From: Thermodesulfobacteriota bacterium
GTDB taxonomy: Bacteria; Desulfobacterota_D; UBA1144
Reading direction: 5' to 3'
Length of the DNA: 12,128 nt
NCBI GenBank assembly: GCA_036340075.1
Contig: JAYYZJ010000009.1
Span: forward strand, 1-12,128
The position numbers were made by a program, and so were the translations under genes. Every line of letters starts with the position of its first letter. Position 1 is the first letter of the stretch. Of this stretch, positions 2,413 through 7,689 are shown one piece after another. The notes beneath the pieces were generated by a model. It had not been told where the DNA came from. It made no database searches and saw only the letters and a list, made by a program, of their open reading frames with translations.

Positions 2413-4152
2413 ATGAATTCTTTACTTTCTTTACTGCCAGAACATAAAAAAAGCATATTATTTGGTGTGCTTGGCCTTACTTTCGTTGACGGAATAATGT
2501 TGCTAGTTCCCATAATTATTGGTGATATAGTGACAAAATTATCTGAAGCTAACTCATCTGAATATTTATTATCTTCAATAAATAAAGCTTCTCTTTATCT
2601 ACTAATTTGTGGTTTAGTGATGGCTTTTTTTAGATTTGTATGGAGATATTTTTTGATGGGCACTGCCAGAAGAATAGAAAAGAAAATTAGAGAAAAGTAT
2701 TTTCAACAATTACAAGATTTACCTATGTCATTTTTTAGTCATAAGAATGGAGGTGATTTAATGACAAGAGGGGTAAATGATATAGAAAACATTAAAATGG
2801 CTTGCGGCTTTGGAATAGTTCTGGTGTACGATGGAATCGTACTCCTTGCATTTATATTTATTTCTATGTTTGTAATATCTCCAGACTTTACCATGTACGC
2901 TGCAATACCTTTTATTTTAATGGGTTTTTTGATTTTAAGATATGGTGACTATATACAACAACTCTTTTTAAACGTACAAAATACTTTTTCAAAATTAACG
3001 GAGGAAGTAAGAAAGATTATCTTTTCTATTCGTGCTATTAAGTCATTAAACGATGAACAAAATCAAATTGCTAAATTTACAAATGTAAGTAAATCATATG
3101 AAATGGAAAATCTAAATTTAATTAAAATATGGGGAGGGTATCAACCAGTTATAACTTTTTTAACAGGAATTTCTATATTAGTTTTAATTTTTCTTGGAAG
3201 CAATATGGTTTATGAAGATAAGATATCTTTAGGAGAATTTTCTTCTTTAATGGTCTATTTGACTATGTTAAGTTGGCCTGTAATCGCAATGGGAATGGCA
3301 GTTGATTTCTTAAAGAGAGGCAATGCTTCTTTATCAAGGGTTAATGAAATAATTTTTAATGAACCAGAGAAAGACGAAGATTTGCTTAAAAAAATTAATT
3401 CTATAAAAAAAATAGAATTCCGAAATGTTAATTTTTCCTATAAAAATGATGATTTTATTAAAAATCTATCTTTAGAAATCAGAAATTCACAGACTATCGG
3501 GATAACAGGTAAAACAGGATCGGGTAAATCTACTTTATGTAAGCTAATCATGAAATCTATTAAAGCTGAAAATATTTATCTTAATGATGATGAAATTAAC
3601 AATCTAAATAAAGAATCGATTAGATCTCAAATTGCCTATGTTGACCAGGAGCCGATTATTTTTTCTGGAACAATAAGAGAAAATGTAAGCTTTTTTGATA
3701 AACAACCAAAAGATTCTTCCATAATAGAATCTCTAGAGACAGCAGGCTTCCAGAAAGACTTATCTAAAATGCCCAAAGGTTTGGAGACTATTGTTGGAGA
3801 GAGAGGTTTGAGTCTTTCAGGTGGACAGAGACAAAGATTGTCTTTAGCTAGAGCATTATATCAAAATCCTAGTGTTTTAATATTAGATGATAATTTGTCA
3901 TCACTAGATGTTGAAACCGAATTAAAAATTTTAAACAATATCAAGAGAAAGTTTAAAGATAAAATACTTATTCTTGTGTCATCACGAATCTCAACAATTT
4001 TTACTTTTGATAAAATTGTTGTTCTTGATTCAGGGAAAATAGTACAGTTTGGGAACTCAAGTCTACTGGAAAACGAAGTAGGTTTATTTAGAGATTTGAT
4101 GTTAACTCAGAAAAATCTACCTGTTGAGGAAGAAACCAATGTCTCAGAATAA
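2413..4152 (+). CDS. ABC exporter half-transporter (TMD+NBD), MdlA/YheI-like subunit with degenerate catalytic residues
   Basis: N-terminal TM helices, GDLMTRGVND, Walker A GKTGSGKST, Q-loop YVDQE, signature LSGGQRQR, Walker B LILDD (no catalytic Glu), switch region VSSRIS (no His). Confidence 0.93.
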   Translation: MNSLLSLLPEHKKSILFGVLGLTFVDGIMLLVPIIIGDIVTKLSEANSSEYLLSSINKASLYLLICGLVMAFFRFVWRYFLMGTARRIEKKIREKYFQQLQDLPMSFFSHKNGGDLMTRGVNDIENIKMACGFGIVLVYDGIVLLAFIFISMFVISPDFTMYAAIPFILMGFLILRYGDYIQQLFLNVQNTFSKLTEEVRKIIFSIRAIKSLNDEQNQIAKFTNVSKSYEMENLNLIKIWGGYQPVITFLTGISILVLIFLGSNMVYEDKISLGEFSSLMVYLTMLSWPVIAMGMAVDFLKRGNASLSRVNEIIFNEPEKDEDLLKKINSIKKIEFRNVNFSYKNDDFIKNLSLEIRNSQTIGITGKTGSGKSTLCKLIMKSIKAENIYLNDDEINNLNKESIRSQIAYVDQEPIIFSGTIRENVSFFDKQPKDSSIIESLETAGFQKDLSKMPKGLETIVGERGLSLSGGQRQRLSLARALYQNPSVLILDDNLSSLDVETELKILNNIKRKFKDKILILVSSRISTIFTFDKIVVLDSGKIVQFGNSSLLENEVGLFRDLMLTQKNLPVEEETNVSE

Positions 4153-5767
4153 AAATATGATTCACTGGCTACTTTCTTTTTGTAAGCCCTATAGATTTCA
4201 GCTACTAATGGCTTTTGGATCAATGATATTAGTTGCTTTTTTTGAAATTACAATCCCTTATAAAATTAAAGAAATAGTTGACGGATTAATATTAAATCAA
4301 ATCAACAAAGACAATATACTGAATATATCCTTAATTGTTTTATCTTTGATTTGCGGAGTACTCTTTTTTAGTTGCATTTTTAGCTATGTGCTAAACATAA
4401 CAGGCCAAAAGATTATGCATCAAATAAGAACAACAGTTTTTAGTCATATAATGTCTCTTCCTCAGAGTTTTTTTGATAAAGAAAATGTTGGCAAAATAAC
4501 TACTAGAATCACTAATGATATTAATGCCTTAACTGAATTTTATACAAATGTATTAATACAATTTTTAAAAGAAATAATTGTTTTCTTTGGAATATTATTG
4601 GTGATTTTTCAATTTAATTCTAATCTTGCCCTTGTAATGATTGGTGTAAACATATTTATAATTATTTTTGCTTTTCTATACAAAAAAAGACTTAGAAGGG
4701 TCTATATTAAATTACGAAAAACTATAGCAGAACTTAATGTTTTTATAAGTGAAACAGTAAGAGGCTTGCCGGTATTAAAAATATTTAGTAAAGAGAAAAG
4801 GAATTATGAAAGGTTTCAGGAGTATAGTAATAGGAATTTTGAAGTAAACATGGAGCAAATGTATACGTTTGCAATCTTTAGACCGATGATTGAATTTATG
4901 TATGCATTTTCCCTATCGTTGGTTGTTTGGCTAGGCGGTAGATTGATAATTGATGAAAGTTTGTCTATAGGAAGTCTTCTGGCGATAATTTTCTATATAA
5001 GAATGTTGTTTAGACCTATACTCGAACTTGCTGATAAATATAATCTCTTACAGTCTGCCCTTGCAGCTAGCGATAATTTATTTTCAATTATTTCAACTAA
5101 ATCAGAAGAGAATGGCAATAGTGAATTTGATGGGAACTTTGAAACTATTTTATTTGATAATGTTTCTTTTAGTTATGATGAAGAAACCTGGGTATTGAAA
5201 AATTTCACTTTAGAAATAAAAAAAAGCGAATCTCTAGTTTTGCTGGGACCAACAGGTTCAGGAAAAACAACAATTGTTAATCTTCTTTTAGGGTTTTATT
5301 TGCCACAAGAAGGAGCTATCTATATAGATGGAAAACCATTAAGCAGTTTTGATCTTCGAACAGTTAGAGCAAATTTATCTGTAATAATGCAAGATACCCC
5401 CTTGCTTAACAATGTTGCAGACGAAGGGTCCTACCATGATATGGATATTGCCCAATCTAGAGGTGAAAAGCAGATTAAGAACATAAAGAAAGTAATAGAA
5501 AAGCCTTTTCATATAATAATATTAGACGAAGCAACATCTAATCTTGATTTAGATTTAGAGCAATATGTGAAGAATTCTTTAGATAAAATTAAAAATAAAA
5601 CATCTGTTTTGATAGCACATAGATTGAATTTAATAAAAGAATTGAGTCAAATTATTATATTAGAAAATGGTAAGATTAAAGAGAAAGGAATACACAAAAA
5701 GCTTATTTTAGAAGAAGGAGAATATAAAAAAATATTTAATTTAAACAAAGAATTCTACTTGAGATAG
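4139..5767 (+). CDS. ABC exporter half-transporter (TMD+NBD), MdlB/YheH-like partner subunit
   Basis: FFDKENVGKITTRITND, Walker A GPTGSGKTT, Walker B IILDEATSNLD, switch IAHRL; signature degenerate (QSRGE). Start chosen at ATG 4139 (GAGGA at 4126-4130) rather than TTG 4124; overlaps upstream gene by 14 nt. Confidence 0.9.
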   Translation: MSQNKNMIHWLLSFCKPYRFQLLMAFGSMILVAFFEITIPYKIKEIVDGLILNQINKDNILNISLIVLSLICGVLFFSCIFSYVLNITGQKIMHQIRTTVFSHIMSLPQSFFDKENVGKITTRITNDINALTEFYTNVLIQFLKEIIVFFGILLVIFQFNSNLALVMIGVNIFIIIFAFLYKKRLRRVYIKLRKTIAELNVFISETVRGLPVLKIFSKEKRNYERFQEYSNRNFEVNMEQMYTFAIFRPMIEFMYAFSLSLVVWLGGRLIIDESLSIGSLLAIIFYIRMLFRPILELADKYNLLQSALAASDNLFSIISTKSEENGNSEFDGNFETILFDNVSFSYDEETWVLKNFTLEIKKSESLVLLGPTGSGKTTIVNLLLGFYLPQEGAIYIDGKPLSSFDLRTVRANLSVIMQDTPLLNNVADEGSYHDMDIAQSRGEKQIKNIKKVIEKPFHIIILDEATSNLDLDLEQYVKNSLDKIKNKTSVLIAHRLNLIKELSQIIILENGKIKEKGIHKKLILEEGEYKKIFNLNKEFYLR

Positions 5768-5768
5768 C

Positions 5769-5797
5769 TTTCTTGTTTAAAATTTTCATTGTATAAT
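5769..5797 (+). promoter_or_regulatory. Putative promoter of tRNA-Pro
   Basis: Perfect TATAAT at 5792-5797, weak -35 TTTCTT at 5769-5774 with 17-bp spacer, 12 nt before the tRNA. Confidence 0.5.
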
Positions 5798-5809
5798 GGA
5801 TTTCTTAAT

Positions 5810-5882
5810 CGGGGTGTAGCGCAGCTGGTAGCGCACCTGTTTTGGGAACAGGGGGTCGGAGGTTCGAGCCCTCTCACCCCGA
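5810..5882 (+). tRNA. tRNA-Pro(TGG)
   Basis: Acceptor CGGGGTG/CACCCCG, anticodon arm CCTGT-TTTGGGA-ACAGG, T-arm GGAGG-TTCGAGC-CCTCT, discriminator A; no encoded CCA. Confidence 0.97.
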
Positions 5883-5917
5883 TTAAATAAATCAAATCAA
5901 TAGAATTAATTTTTCTT

Positions 5918-6121
5918 TTAATTTAAATCTAATTGAATATTAGCAAACAAACTATTTCGAGCTTTTCTTTCAATGCTTTTTCGATAAGCTTTTAAAGCAT
6001 AAGAATGTCTAAAAAAAGAAAGTTTCTCTTTAACAGACAATGCTACTTTTTTTGTTTGCCTTTGTACTTGGGTATTGTTAACGGTAACCACCAAGTTTGT
6101 TCTTAGTTCAGTCTTGAGCAT
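5918..6121 (-). CDS. Small basic hypothetical protein (67 aa); weak by-eye resemblance to ribosomal protein bS21
   Basis: Strong SD AAAGGAGGT (GGAGG at 6131-6135) 9 nt before ATG 6121; the track's TTG 6127 is too close to the SD. Candidate promoter at 6259-6267. K/R-rich with no TM segment. Confidence 0.7.
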   Translation of the reverse strand: MLKTELRTNLVVTVNNTQVQRQTKKVALSVKEKLSFFRHSYALKAYRKSIERKARNSLFANIQLDLN

Positions 6122-6155
6122 ATCCAAATACCTCCTTTAAAAAAGATATTCGAAC
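6122..6155 (-). promoter_or_regulatory. SD-sequestering hairpin (fourU-like) in front of the 67-aa ORF
   Basis: GAAUAUCUUUU-UUAA-AGGAGGUAUUU forms 11 contiguous pairs (4 G-U), extendable to 15 with GUUC/GGAU right up to the AUG. Confidence 0.55.
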
Positions 6156-6249
6156 TTGTAACGCATGTTCAATGCGAGTCTTTTAACCCATGACCTATGG
6201 AGGCTTTTCACTCATGTCCTATGAGGGTCTTTTTGGCCATGACCTATGG
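6152..6249 (-). ncRNA. Array of four tandem 24-25 nt repeats, each a predicted minimal H-type pseudoknot (cis-regulatory leader or processed small RNA)
   Basis: Units 6249-6226, 6225-6201, 6200-6177, 6176-6152; stem 1 CCAU/AUGG, CUCAU/AUGAG, CCAU/AUGG, CGCAU/AUGCG; loop-to-downstream stem 2 GGUC/GACC, GGAC/GCCU, GGUC/GACU, GAAC/GUUC; A-rich connecting loops. The repeat is certain, the fold is predicted. Confidence 0.7.
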
Positions 6250-6258
6250 AATACTTTA

Positions 6259-6267
6259 ATTATATCA
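6259..6267 (-). promoter_or_regulatory. Extended -10 promoter (TGnTATAAT) for the repeat array and small ORF
   Basis: Minus strand reads TGATATAAT at 6267-6259; predicted +1 near 6252-6253, 3-4 nt before the first repeat. No recognisable -35. Confidence 0.65.
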
Positions 6268-6280
6268 AATATATATTGAA

Positions 6281-6309
6281 TTTCATTAATAAATAATGGA
6301 AGATAAAAT
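6281..6309 (+). promoter_or_regulatory. Putative promoter of tRNA-Arg/tRNA-His
   Basis: TTTCAT (6281-6286), 17 bp, TAAAAT (6304-6309), 10 nt before tRNA-Arg; the region is very AT-rich so the match is not highly specific. Confidence 0.4.
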
Positions 6310-6319
6310 GATTAATGAT

Positions 6320-6393
<74 letters not shown>

Positions 6394-6403
6394 GGATTTT
6401 TAT

Positions 6404-6478
6404 GGTGGATGTAGCTCAGTTGGTTAGAGCATCGGTTTGTGGTTCCGAGGGTCGCGGGTTCGAATCCCGTCTTCCACC
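6404..6478 (+). tRNA. tRNA-His(GTG)
   Basis: Encoded G-1 (6404) opposite C73 (6478), acceptor GTGGATG/CTTCCAC, anticodon loop TTGTGGT, T-arm GCGGG-TTCGAAT-CCCGT; no complete CCA. Confidence 0.96.
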
Positions 6479-6507
6479 CTTATTATTAATACAAAAAAAT
6501 ATTTTAC

Positions 6508-7689
6508 TTATGTTGTATATAAAGAATTCAATTTTATATAATCATGGCCAATATCATTGGTTAGCATAAATGCTTGGCTTTTTCCTTTATTTAAATTAAT
6601 TGTAATTTCTATTGATTTTTTCTTCATTAATTTTTTGGCTGATGATAAATTCCCGTATAGTTCTCCATTCTTAACAATTTTTATTTTCCCTATATGTATA
6701 TCTATTTTGTTTGGTTTTATATAATTAATCTGTGTTGAACCAACAGATGCAATAATTCTCCCCCAGTTTGGATCTGATCCATACAATGCAGTCTTGAATA
6801 GTAGAGAGGTAGATATTTGTCTAGCAATAAAATCAGCTGATTTTTTATCTCTCGCTCCTTTTACCACGACTCTACAGATTTTAGTTGACCCCTCCCCATC
6901 TCTTACAATATCTTCCGCTAAAGAATCGAATATTCCCTGTATTTCTTTTGTTACTTTACCTAGACCTGCACTTTTATTGTCTATCATTTTGTTCTCTGCC
7001 ATTCCATTTGATAATGCTAATACTGTGTCGTTAGTAGACATATCACCATCAACACTGATGCAATTAAAAGAACTATCTACGGCGTTGTTGATTAATTTTT
7101 TAAAAGTATTTTTATTGAATTTTAAATCGGTTATAAGAAAACATAGCATTGTAGCCATCCCCGGATGTATCATTCCTGCCCCTTTAGCAATTCCTAATAT
7201 GTTTCCTTTGTGTTTACCAATGCTAACTTGAACATGCTTGTATTTTATATACTTGTCAGTTGTTCTAATTGATTCTGCGAAATCTTTAAAATTATTTTGA
7301 TTAAGAGATTTTACAAGCTTACTGATACCGTTATTTATTTTTCCGTAGTCTAGCTGAACTCCAATAATTCCAGTTGAAGAAGGAAAGAAATTATATGATT
7401 GATAACCAGTTGCTTTGGACAGACTATTTAATATTTTGTTTGTTGCTATAACGCCTTTATTGCCTGTGCATGCATTTGCATTTCCGCTATTCGCAATTAC
7501 TCCAAATAATTCATCAAATCTTAGTATTTCTTTCCCAACTTCTAATGGAGCAGCAATAACTTTATTTTTTGTAAAAACCGCATGGGCTATGCATTTTTCG
7601 TCTGATAAAATTAAACCCAAATCTTTTTTATTAGATTTTTTAAGTCCACAATTAATACCCGCAAATCTAAAACCCTTAACTTTAACCAT
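6508..7689 (-). CDS. argJ: Glutamate N-acetyltransferase / ornithine acetyltransferase ArgJ
   Basis: Motifs VFTKN, ANSGNANACTG, SSTGIIG, AKGAGMIHPGMATML, SFNCISVDGDMSTNDT, DGEGSTK, DPNWGRI, C-terminal YTT; TAATG coupling to recO. Confidence 0.97.
   Translation of the reverse strand: MVKVKGFRFAGINCGLKKSNKKDLGLILSDEKCIAHAVFTKNKVIAAPLEVGKEILRFDELFGVIANSGNANACTGNKGVIATNKILNSLSKATGYQSYNFFPSSTGIIGVQLDYGKINNGISKLVKSLNQNNFKDFAESIRTTDKYIKYKHVQVSIGKHKGNILGIAKGAGMIHPGMATMLCFLITDLKFNKNTFKKLINNAVDSSFNCISVDGDMSTNDTVLALSNGMAENKMIDNKSAGLGKVTKEIQGIFDSLAEDIVRDGEGSTKICRVVVKGARDKKSADFIARQISTSLLFKTALYGSDPNWGRIIASVGSTQINYIKPNKIDIHIGKIKIVKNGELYGNLSSAKKLMKKKSIEITINLNKGKSQAFMLTNDIGHDYIKLNSLYTT

Follow-up and report, generated by a model that had tools for sequence, protein, structure and literature searches.

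A candidate array of four minimal pseudoknots in the strongly conserved leader of an orphan small-protein gene from uncultured bacteria

Organization of the locus

The window of our study, that is, the whole 12,128-nt stretch of DNA that was analysed, belongs to contig JAYYZJ010000009.1 of a Thermodesulfobacteriota bacterium (GCA_036340075.1) and is AT-rich, with approximately 30% G+C. Our subject is an array of four abutting units of 24-25 nt each, 98 nt in total, located at positions 6152-6249 of the minus strand, inside the 435-nt gap between a tRNA-Pro and a tRNA-Arg gene. An earlier note on this DNA had described these units as minimal H-type pseudoknots, and the 98-nt minus-strand sequence that it quoted is exact. 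On the minus strand, the array is preceded by a promoter-like site and followed by a hairpin that contains a Shine-Dalgarno (SD) sequence and by an open reading frame (ORF) of 67 codons. The features of this region are the following.

6259..6286, minus strand: promoter-like site (ATGAAA, a 16-nt spacer and TATAAT, with a TG before the -10 hexamer, i.e., an extended -10).
6226..6249, minus strand: unit 1, CCAU-A-GGUC-AUGG-CCAAAAA-GACC; stem 1 of 4 bp, stem 2 of 4 Watson-Crick bp.
6201..6225, minus strand: unit 2, CUCAU-A-GGAC-AUGAG-UGAAAA-GCCU; stem 1 of 5 bp, the weakest stem 2, with one G-U and one A x C.
6177..6200, minus strand: unit 3, CCAU-A-GGUC-AUGG-GUUAAAA-GACU; stem 1 of 4 bp, stem 2 of 4 bp including one G-U.
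6152..6176, minus strand: unit 4, CGCAU-U-GAAC-AUGCG-UUACAA-GUUC; stem 1 of 5 bp, stem 2 of 4 bp.
6122..6155, minus strand: predicted SD-sequestering hairpin of 15 bp with a 4-nt loop and six G-U pairs, which ends one base before the AUG.
6131..6138, minus strand: SD sequence AAAGGAGG, 9 nt before the AUG at 6121.
5918..6121, minus strand: small-protein gene of 67 codons; the other two frames are closed.
5809-5883, plus strand: tRNA-Pro (ARAGORN).
6319-6394, plus strand: tRNA-Arg (ARAGORN).
6405-6479, plus strand: tRNA-His (ARAGORN).

Given that a promoter-like site precedes the array, that the SD sequence and the AUG follow it, and that the encoded 67-amino-acid (aa) protein belongs to a conserved family, the array is the 5' portion of a leader that belongs to a real, orphan gene for a small protein. 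The earlier note had missed this arrangement, in which the array is the 5' end of a conserved leader and its last stem overlaps the SD-sequestering hairpin.

For comparison we used L001, a stretch of 8,201 nt from a metagenome-assembled genome labelled as an uncultured Spirochaetales bacterium. It is the one related locus that emerged from 51 pattern matches in a scan of species-representative genomes, carried out with patterns from the close clade of the small protein only, and our comparison of the array and leader at the DNA level is therefore one of two genomes, the window and L001. The gene order in L001 is as in the window (tRNA-His, tRNA-Arg, array, ORF, and tRNA-Pro), and the overall identity between both sequences is 70-71% across 7.6 kb.

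Pairing and covariation within the array

All the units follow the same plan: a stem 1 of 4-5 bp, a loop 1 of 1 nt, a stem 2 of 4 bp and an A-rich loop 3 of 6-7 nt, where the hairpin loop of each unit complements the four bases located 3' of its A-rich linker. We aligned the units in a register of 25 columns, in which stem 1 occupies columns 1-5 and 11-15 and stem 2 occupies columns 7-10 and 22-25. The two interleaved complementarities attributed by the earlier note to four back-to-back units are present, as 34 of the 36 cells of the window's units hold standard pairs; there are two exceptions, since unit 1 has a U x C at the outer end of its stem 1 and unit 2 has an A x C within its stem 2. 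With the four units of L001 included, 68 of the 72 cells are paired (94.4%), a value that falls to 25-36% when the 3' partners are slid by 1-3 columns and that none of 500 shuffles reaches.

Compensatory change, which had been claimed for both stems, does occur in both: four pairs are altered on both sides across the eight units. In stem 1, the pair of columns 2 and 14 appears as C-G, U-A, and G-C. In stem 2, columns 8 and 24 change from G-C to A-U, columns 9 and 23 from U-A to A-U, and columns 7 and 25 appear as G-C, G-U, and A-U. Three of these doubly compensated pairs distinguish unit 4 from units 1 and 3, and if ten random substitutions are made to turn unit 3 into a sequence as diverged as unit 4, all nine pairs (9/9) are retained with a probability of ~0.001. 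When the unpaired part of each unit is shuffled, the complementarity of stem 2 has a P value of 0.0003, 0.07, 0.018, and 0.019 in units 1 to 4, respectively. The elements that do not vary among the units are the CAU/AUG core of stem 1 and three adenines of loop 3. Unit 2 is indeed the weakest of the four, with the A x C mismatch and the G-U pair that had been pointed out for it, and its loop, as judged by eye, pairs better with the tail of unit 4 (four pairs) than with its own tail (three pairs). Stem 1 of unit 3 can be extended to 5 bp if a U-G pair borrows the last base of unit 2. The pseudoknot fold is plausible and has the support of this covariation, although the independent events behind it are few.

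The repetitive nature of the array was also recovered by Tandem Repeats Finder, which reports a period of 24 and 3.1 copies at 6176-6250 with a score of 85, the fourth unit being more diverged. The core pattern CATNGNNCATG has five matches in the 12,128 nt of the window, four of them within the array, where 0.20 are expected by chance, and none of 200 shuffles reaches five. In the window and L001 taken together (20,329 nt), a covariance model of the unit recovers only the eight units used for training, the next match having E=0.15, and there is no further copy of the array in either the 12,128-nt window or the 8,201-nt L001. These 20,329 nt, which hold no other copy, gave no support to a dispersed repeat of the REP (repetitive extragenic palindromic) kind. 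An origin in phages or plasmids was rejected: a blastn search with 401 nt matched 30 phage and 3 plasmid records, and of the matches listed none covers the repeats, as all of them lie either within the 56 AT-rich nt upstream or within the ORF.

The opinion that the array belongs to no described bacterial RNA family agrees with our searches of Rfam 15. At the gathering score, the window yields only its three tRNAs and no family over the array; at E<=10, the 435 nt of the window and the corresponding 439 nt of L001 yield four and two weak chance matches, respectively, none near the threshold.

Conservation of the leader

The identity between the window and L001 differs markedly among the parts of the locus, as follows.

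Array: 95/98 identical (97%).
Array to AUG: 28/30 identical (93%).
tRNAs: 71-75 of 75-76 identical (95-100%).
Small ORF: 168/204 identical (82%).
Upstream spacer: 59/70 identical (84%).
ArgJ: 811/1182 identical (69%).
ABC subunit 2: 1112/1644 identical (68%).
RecO: 450/710 identical (63%).

The flanking protein genes share 63-71% identity, and the whole leader is conserved, over these two sequences, like a tRNA. As presumed-neutral sites we took the neighbouring intergenic spacers and the third codon positions, all from the island that the tRNA genes enclose: the leader differs at 5 of 128 positions and these sites at 35 of 174 (Fisher P = 2e-5). All five leader differences are neutral with respect to structure: the A-rich linkers and the loop of the SD hairpin account for two each, and the fifth changes a G-U pair of stem 2 to A-U. 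Unit by unit, unit 1 is identical in L001, unit 2 has a single linker change from G to A, unit 3 has the change from G to A in the loop that converts the G-U of stem 2 to A-U, and unit 4 has a single linker change from C to A. The conserved stretch starts with the first base of unit 1, given that three of the five bases just upstream differ between the genomes. These comparisons indicate that the leader is under strong selection, and the earlier claim of a selected structure stands in what concerns selection, with 95/98 identity in the array next to 63-71% in the flanking genes.

The 435-nt island at 5884-6318 is, as a whole, 78-97% identical to L001 depending on the part, above the flanking protein genes (63-71%). 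It is important to consider that the near-identical flanking tRNA genes could act as recombination arms, so that the common ancestor of the island may be more recent than that of its surroundings. Even within the island the leader stands out, being far better conserved than the other parts.

The promoter-like site and the Shine-Dalgarno hairpin

The promoter-like site has 10 of 12 hexamer matches and ends 9 nt upstream of the array, and its -10 hexamer is conserved in L001. Its position implies a putative start of the transcript near 6252-6254, which is 3-5 nt ahead of unit 1.

The SD sequence is identical in L001. The hairpin that encloses it folds with -12.8 kcal/mol (z -3.27; 1 of 200 shuffles is as good), and the equivalent in L001 folds with -12.7 kcal/mol (z -2.29), whereas the complement on the plus strand reaches only -2.0 kcal/mol (z 0.16). 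Because of the six G-U pairs in the hairpin, its plus-strand complement does not fold, which argues for a structure at the RNA level that is specific to the minus strand. The earlier note had placed the functional structure on this strand; in agreement with it, the promoter-like site, the SD sequence and the ORF lie there, and the G-U pairs fit only the minus strand. The pair probabilities of the hairpin are 0.57-0.99. The GUUC of its four bottom pairs doubles as the 3' side of stem 2 in unit 4, and the full 15-bp hairpin (-11.7 kcal/mol) compares with -6.9 kcal/mol for the 11 bp that remain without GUUC:GGAU.

In both genomes, and in both the minimum free energy (MFE) and the centroid structures, the AGGA of the SD sequence is paired with a run of four U. 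This is the arrangement by which fourU elements are defined (PMC10586365, PMC3185406), and the SD hairpin shows it in its sequence and predicted fold. The likeness to fourU thermometers applies to the SD hairpin and not to the array, and consists of the UUUU/AGGA pairing and of a hairpin rich in A-U and G-U; unlike them, this hairpin has a 15-bp stem and no Rfam thermometer match, and its gene matches no heat-shock or virulence family.

No terminator-like site was found on the minus strand in 5600-6700, and the palindrome of the SD hairpin has no U-tract after it. Since there is no such site 3' of the small ORF, its transcription may continue into tRNA-Pro (5809-5883) in the antisense orientation. 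The sole terminator-like site in 5600-6700, where 0.6 are expected, lies on the plus strand at 6162-6176 and consists of the unit 4 hairpin in reverse complement with TCTTTTAA after it. We also considered a leader peptide, encoded by an upstream ORF that starts at the AUG of unit 4 and, in the window, stops after nine codons within the SD hairpin loop; it was rejected because this frame is cut to two codons in L001.

The 69-nt AT-rich spacer at 6250-6318, 84% conserved in L001, is the place from which the tRNA-Arg/His genes (plus strand) and the leader of the small gene (minus strand) diverge. Two divergent promoters probably share it. A plus-strand TTCATT, 16-nt spacer and TAAAAT, spotted by eye in the same interval, falls under the threshold of the promoter scan.

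The encoded small protein

The product of the ORF is a basic protein of 67 aa (pI 10.8), for which AlphaFold2 predicts two helices (2-23 and 30-66) with a pLDDT of ~75. Its family includes 11 database clusters in addition to the window's protein. All 12 members are exactly 67 aa long, with no indels, which makes the small ORF a real gene; they share 51-96% identity and 24 invariant columns, and the N-terminal MLK is invariant in 12/12. The distant members (P0005, P0008-P0013) are 51-57% identical, and the source record of one of them assigns it to a Thermodesulfobacteriota metagenome-assembled genome; the close members include P0001-P0003. With respect to L001, the differences in the ORF are distributed as 10/10/16 over the three codon positions.

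Our searches with this protein gave no Pfam family at E<=0.01, no PADLOC family at E<=1, and no NCBIfam family at the thresholds used. In PHROGs there was none for the window's protein and one marginal match (E=0.16) for the homolog P0005; the sequence search of solved structures (PDB) gave one chance match (E=1.4); Foldseek with the predicted model gave no PDB match and one BFVD match at E=9.6; and the ESM Atlas gave no usable match. A profile search of 1.84 billion representatives returned four matches, two of them genuine, both of 67 aa, and two spurious (repetitive or low-complexity). Longer or fused forms of the protein were not found in these searches, which is weak evidence. To judge from its known relatives, the small protein is an orphan family conserved in uncultured marine bacteria.

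Folding of the array and pairing with the first codons

In nested folding, which disregards pseudoknots, the pair probabilities of stem 1 are 0.44 in unit 2 and 0.87 in unit 4. We also estimated pseudoknot energies as crude stack sums plus Dirks-Pierce penalties. By this crude estimate, the gain of the pseudoknot over the hairpins alone is ~0.5-1.2 kcal/mol, and the comparison of pseudoknot and nested folds is neutral.

Some parts of the array may pair further downstream. The loop and the 3' stem-1 strand of unit 3 (6186-6195) can form, with 6110-6119 of the minus strand, a helix of 9 bp with one 1x1 internal loop, which engages the G of the start codon and codons 2-4; its equivalent in L001 joins 3927-3936 with 4003-4012. 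The probability of this helix is ~0.75 in L001 and 0.04 in the window, where the MFE structure has a unit 2 variant instead. Both the CUCA of the unit 2 5' strand and the GACU that forms the tail of unit 3 recur in the first codons. In addition, GCCUCC at the junction of units 2 and 3 (6199-6204, minus strand) complements the GGAGGU of the SD sequence (6130-6135). It is a possible long-range anti-SD, and this pairing is absent from all the predicted folds.

A proposed mode of regulation

Overall, the element is a real, strongly selected and undescribed structured leader, whose function we infer. Its array lies at the 5' end and its last stem overlaps the SD-sequestering hairpin, and for these reasons our leading reading is a cis-regulatory role: a new structured 5' leader in which a pseudoknot array is coupled to a hairpin that hides the ribosome-binding site (RBS), with translation controlled in cis. 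We put this reading forward tentatively, as the best candidate of those considered, and it may well prove wrong.

According to this proposal, the units would fold as minimal H-type pseudoknots, and the invariant CAU/AUG core together with the invariant adenines of loop 3 would give rise to a compact, triplex-like fold. For a 1-nt loop 1 and a 6-7 nt loop 3, the steric rule for such knots allows the minus strand only. Given that no nucleotide separates the stems, coaxial stacking would be expected, as is assumed for such knots in PMC2853144. The folding of the last pseudoknot and the full closure of the SD hairpin would be mutually exclusive, and units 2 and 3 could alternatively pair with the first codons. 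If the array were stabilised, the occlusion of the RBS would be weakened and the translation of the small protein would consequently shift, a folded array favouring ribosome access and an unfolded one disfavouring it.

As for the effector, the likeliest would be, by analogy, the encoded basic protein itself, acting multivalently on the four repeats in an autogenous control; temperature or a small ligand are less likely. We rank the protein first because of the analogy with the T4 gene 32 operator and because four repeats suggest multivalent binding. In that operator, a 5'-terminal pseudoknot of ~28 nt nucleates the binding of the encoded protein towards the RBS (PMC535899); in both systems, the mRNA would begin with a pseudoknot, ahead of the RBS, and the proposed effector would be the basic, nucleic-acid-binding protein encoded downstream. 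The T4 operator differs in having one pseudoknot and unstructured UUAAA repeats, whereas here there are four candidate pseudoknots and a structured SD hairpin, and the protein is unrelated. A bolder version of this idea, which we regard as rather unlikely, is that a 5'-terminal rod of four coaxially stacked pseudoknots represents an undescribed class of regulatory RNA, a multivalent and cooperative sensor of its own product or of a small ligand that gates translation against the fourU-type SD hairpin and the first-codon pairing, so that a dedicated ribonucleoprotein module, made up of this RNA and the orphan protein, would exist in an uncultured marine lineage.

Several observations weigh against the proposed cis control. 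First, with regard to covariation, units 1 and 3 are near-copies, which leaves approximately three independent unit types, the rows of L001 nearly duplicate those of the window, and a double change in the second stem of unit 2 is left uncompensated (A x C); with only two genomes compared and an array that barely varies, the covariation comes from about three unit types of one array, and the structural model was derived from the same sequences used to test it. Second, with regard to energetics, the nested MFE of the 98 nt is not unusual (z = 0.09), the nested probabilities of stem 1 are 0.01-0.02 in units 1 and 3, and the crude pseudoknot energy per unit (-3.7 to -4.5 kcal/mol) is close to that of the best nested fold (-2.7 to -4.0 kcal/mol). 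Third, the promoter scan gave four sites where 4.9 were expected, so the promoter-like site is a consensus match only. Finally, only unit 4 overlaps the SD hairpin, which does not account for four copies, and the small protein belongs to no recognisable RNA-binding family, its binding to RNA being something that we purely infer.

Alternative explanations

The alternative that best survives the evidence, although we consider it unlikely, is that the array is made of hairpins only, i.e., four stem-loops separated by A-rich single strands, with an incidental complementarity between loop and tail, serving as a 5' stabiliser against RNases that depend on the 5' end, or as a landing pad for a general RNA-binding protein such as Hfq, ribosomal protein S1 or a factor of the CsrA kind. 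The position of the array at the extreme 5' end, the three invariant adenines of its A-rich linkers, the mismatch in stem 2 of unit 2, the better support for stem 1 in units 2 and 4 under nested folding and a thermodynamics that can do without stem 2 are all consistent with it. Nevertheless, three pairs of stem 2 have changed on both sides, with a chance per unit of 0.0003-0.07, the sole loop change in L001 keeps the pairing by turning a G-U into an A-U, and a stabiliser or generic binder would not demand the conservation of 95 of 98 positions over all four units. A sponge for CsrA/Rsm proteins was considered separately and rejected: the CsrA motif is GGA, and GGA is found in the loop of unit 2 only.

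It is more doubtful still that the locus encodes an RNA-protein pair acting in trans, similar to type III toxin-antitoxin systems, in which the array would be cut into units that bind the small protein and neutralise it or assemble with it, and would not control its translation. The earlier note had offered an antitoxin as one possible role of the array, and most of the evidence speaks against this suggestion. The order of promoter, tandem direct repeats proposed to fold as pseudoknots, palindrome and gene does resemble that of the ToxI, CptI and TenpI loci (PMC3401426), and the protein is small and basic. However, the likeness is in layout only: the repeats are 24-25 nt long versus 31-62 nt in the three known families, and the protein has 67 aa versus means of 149-168 for the ToxN, CptN and TenpN endoribonucleases (PMC3401426). 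No toxin or defence family was matched in Pfam or PADLOC; the palindrome contains the SD sequence and lacks a U-tract, and no terminator precedes the gene or exists elsewhere on the minus strand in the interval scanned. The locus is syntenic between tRNA genes at ~70% identity, unlike a mobile defence island, the small gene is better conserved than its neighbours, and none of the phage and plasmid matches listed lies over the repeats.

We give very little credence to a tandem riboswitch, in which each unit would be a minimal aptamer similar to preQ1-I and an occupied unit 4 would open the SD hairpin. The resemblance lies in the candidate fold, a compact H-type pseudoknot within a 5' leader that would be coupled to the accessibility of the SD sequence, here through its overlap with the SD-sequestering hairpin. 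It extends to an A-rich loop 3 expected in the minor groove of stem 1, where preQ1-I knots make adenine contacts, and to the UC or AC that precedes the 3' strand of stem 1 (PMC11625349). Unlike preQ1-I, the array units come in four tandem copies and lack a loop that would separate stem 2 from stem 1, and the C expected to recognise the ligand is engaged, in 8/8 units, in a cis pair with an invariant G. The downstream gene, which is unrelated to queuosine, encodes an orphan 67-aa protein that is neither an enzyme nor a transporter, there is no Rfam match to preQ1-I or to any riboswitch even at E<=10, and the pseudoknot would here, according to our model, free the SD sequence and not hide it. 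The units are also shorter, 24-25 nt versus ~34 nt.

An equally slight chance is given to a function as DNA operators, where the four CAT-N5-ATG palindromes would be bound by a transcription factor acting as a dimer, which might be the small protein, and transcription would be blocked just past its start site. There are indeed four palindromes of 13-15 bp with an invariant CAT/ATG core, located at ~+3 to +100 of the promoter-like site. On the other hand, the outer arm varies symmetrically (C-G, U-A, G-C), which fits base pairing better than one recognition sequence, the G-U positions are not palindromic as DNA, and the interleaved second complementarity has no rationale in DNA binding. Moreover, spacings of 25, 24, and 25 bp set successive sites ~103-137 degrees apart on the helix, the A-rich linker is asymmetric between strands, and the predicted helical hairpin of the protein matches no DNA-binding family.

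A role on the plus strand, as weak tandem terminators or processing hairpins of a transcript from tRNA-Pro to tRNA-Arg-His, is hardly credible: the three tRNAs are all on that strand and one terminator-like site is found at 6162-6176 versus 0.6 expected, but stems of 4-5 bp with a T-run 4 nt away are poor terminators and one of the four units passes the scan, the G-U pairs turn into A x C, the array folded as plus strand has a z of -0.27, the adjoining conserved hairpin forms on the minus strand only, and a 1-nt loop would need to cross the shallow groove.

Relation to known pseudoknots

Judging by sequence and predicted pairing, a unit would work like the compact pseudoknots of the preQ1-I and luteoviral types, while belonging to neither family. 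The dimensions of luteoviral pseudoknots of the beet western yellows virus type are nearly identical to those of the array units, with 4-5 bp in stem 1, 1-2 nt in loop 1, 3-4 bp in stem 2 and 6-7 nt in the adenine-rich loop. They differ in context: the viral element is a single copy in a coding overlap after a slippery site, whereas here it is bacterial, fourfold, and in a non-coding leader. No coding frame runs through the units, as the frames are closed, and the array lies upstream of the SD sequence, with no frameshift context.

Several H-type pseudoknots in a row, modelled as stacked, are found in the 3' untranslated region of tobamoviruses. The same holds for tmRNA (PMC1168896). In both cases, the pseudoknots lie next to tRNA-like domains and do not repeat a single unit. 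A tmRNA was rejected as an explanation for our array: ARAGORN finds three tRNAs and no tmRNA in the window, and the alpha_tmRNA match has 6.6 bits versus a gathering score of 50.

A search of the open-access literature found nothing on a bacterial leader made of tandem minimal pseudoknots, as its results concerned tmRNA, human mRNAs, viral IRESs and a prediction method, although this search was limited and is no proof of absence. If the pseudoknot fold is true, the units would be among the smallest self-contained pseudoknot modules in cellular RNA, and the leader would be, to our knowledge, the first one known in bacteria that is built as a tandem array of minimal pseudoknots; if the stacked rod also acts as a sensor, its unit would be smaller than any known autonomous riboswitch aptamer. 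Such an element would offer a compact and modular system for studying the cooperative folding of minimal pseudoknots and the tuning of a translational switch by repeat number, as well as a handle on the function of an orphan 67-aa basic protein of uncultured marine bacteria. It is short enough to be studied directly by means of synthetic RNA and reporter fusions.

Neighbouring genes

The ordinary genes of the window encode ApbE, two ABC exporter subunits, ArgJ, RecO, MgtE, and UbiA/UbiX/UbiD. In addition, an open frame of 415 aa on the minus strand (3-1247) runs off the window; its N-terminus resembles a signal peptide, it matches no Pfam family at E<=0.01, and its product may be an outer-membrane protein of an undescribed family. 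The two ABC exporter genes (2413-4152 and 4124-5767, plus strand) overlap. The first subunit has an aspartate at the position expected for the Walker B glutamate (LILDDN), while the second has a degenerate signature motif and an ABC_tran match that spans only profile positions 1-74 of 137; from these sequence features, the two subunits look like a heterodimer with one degenerate ATP site.

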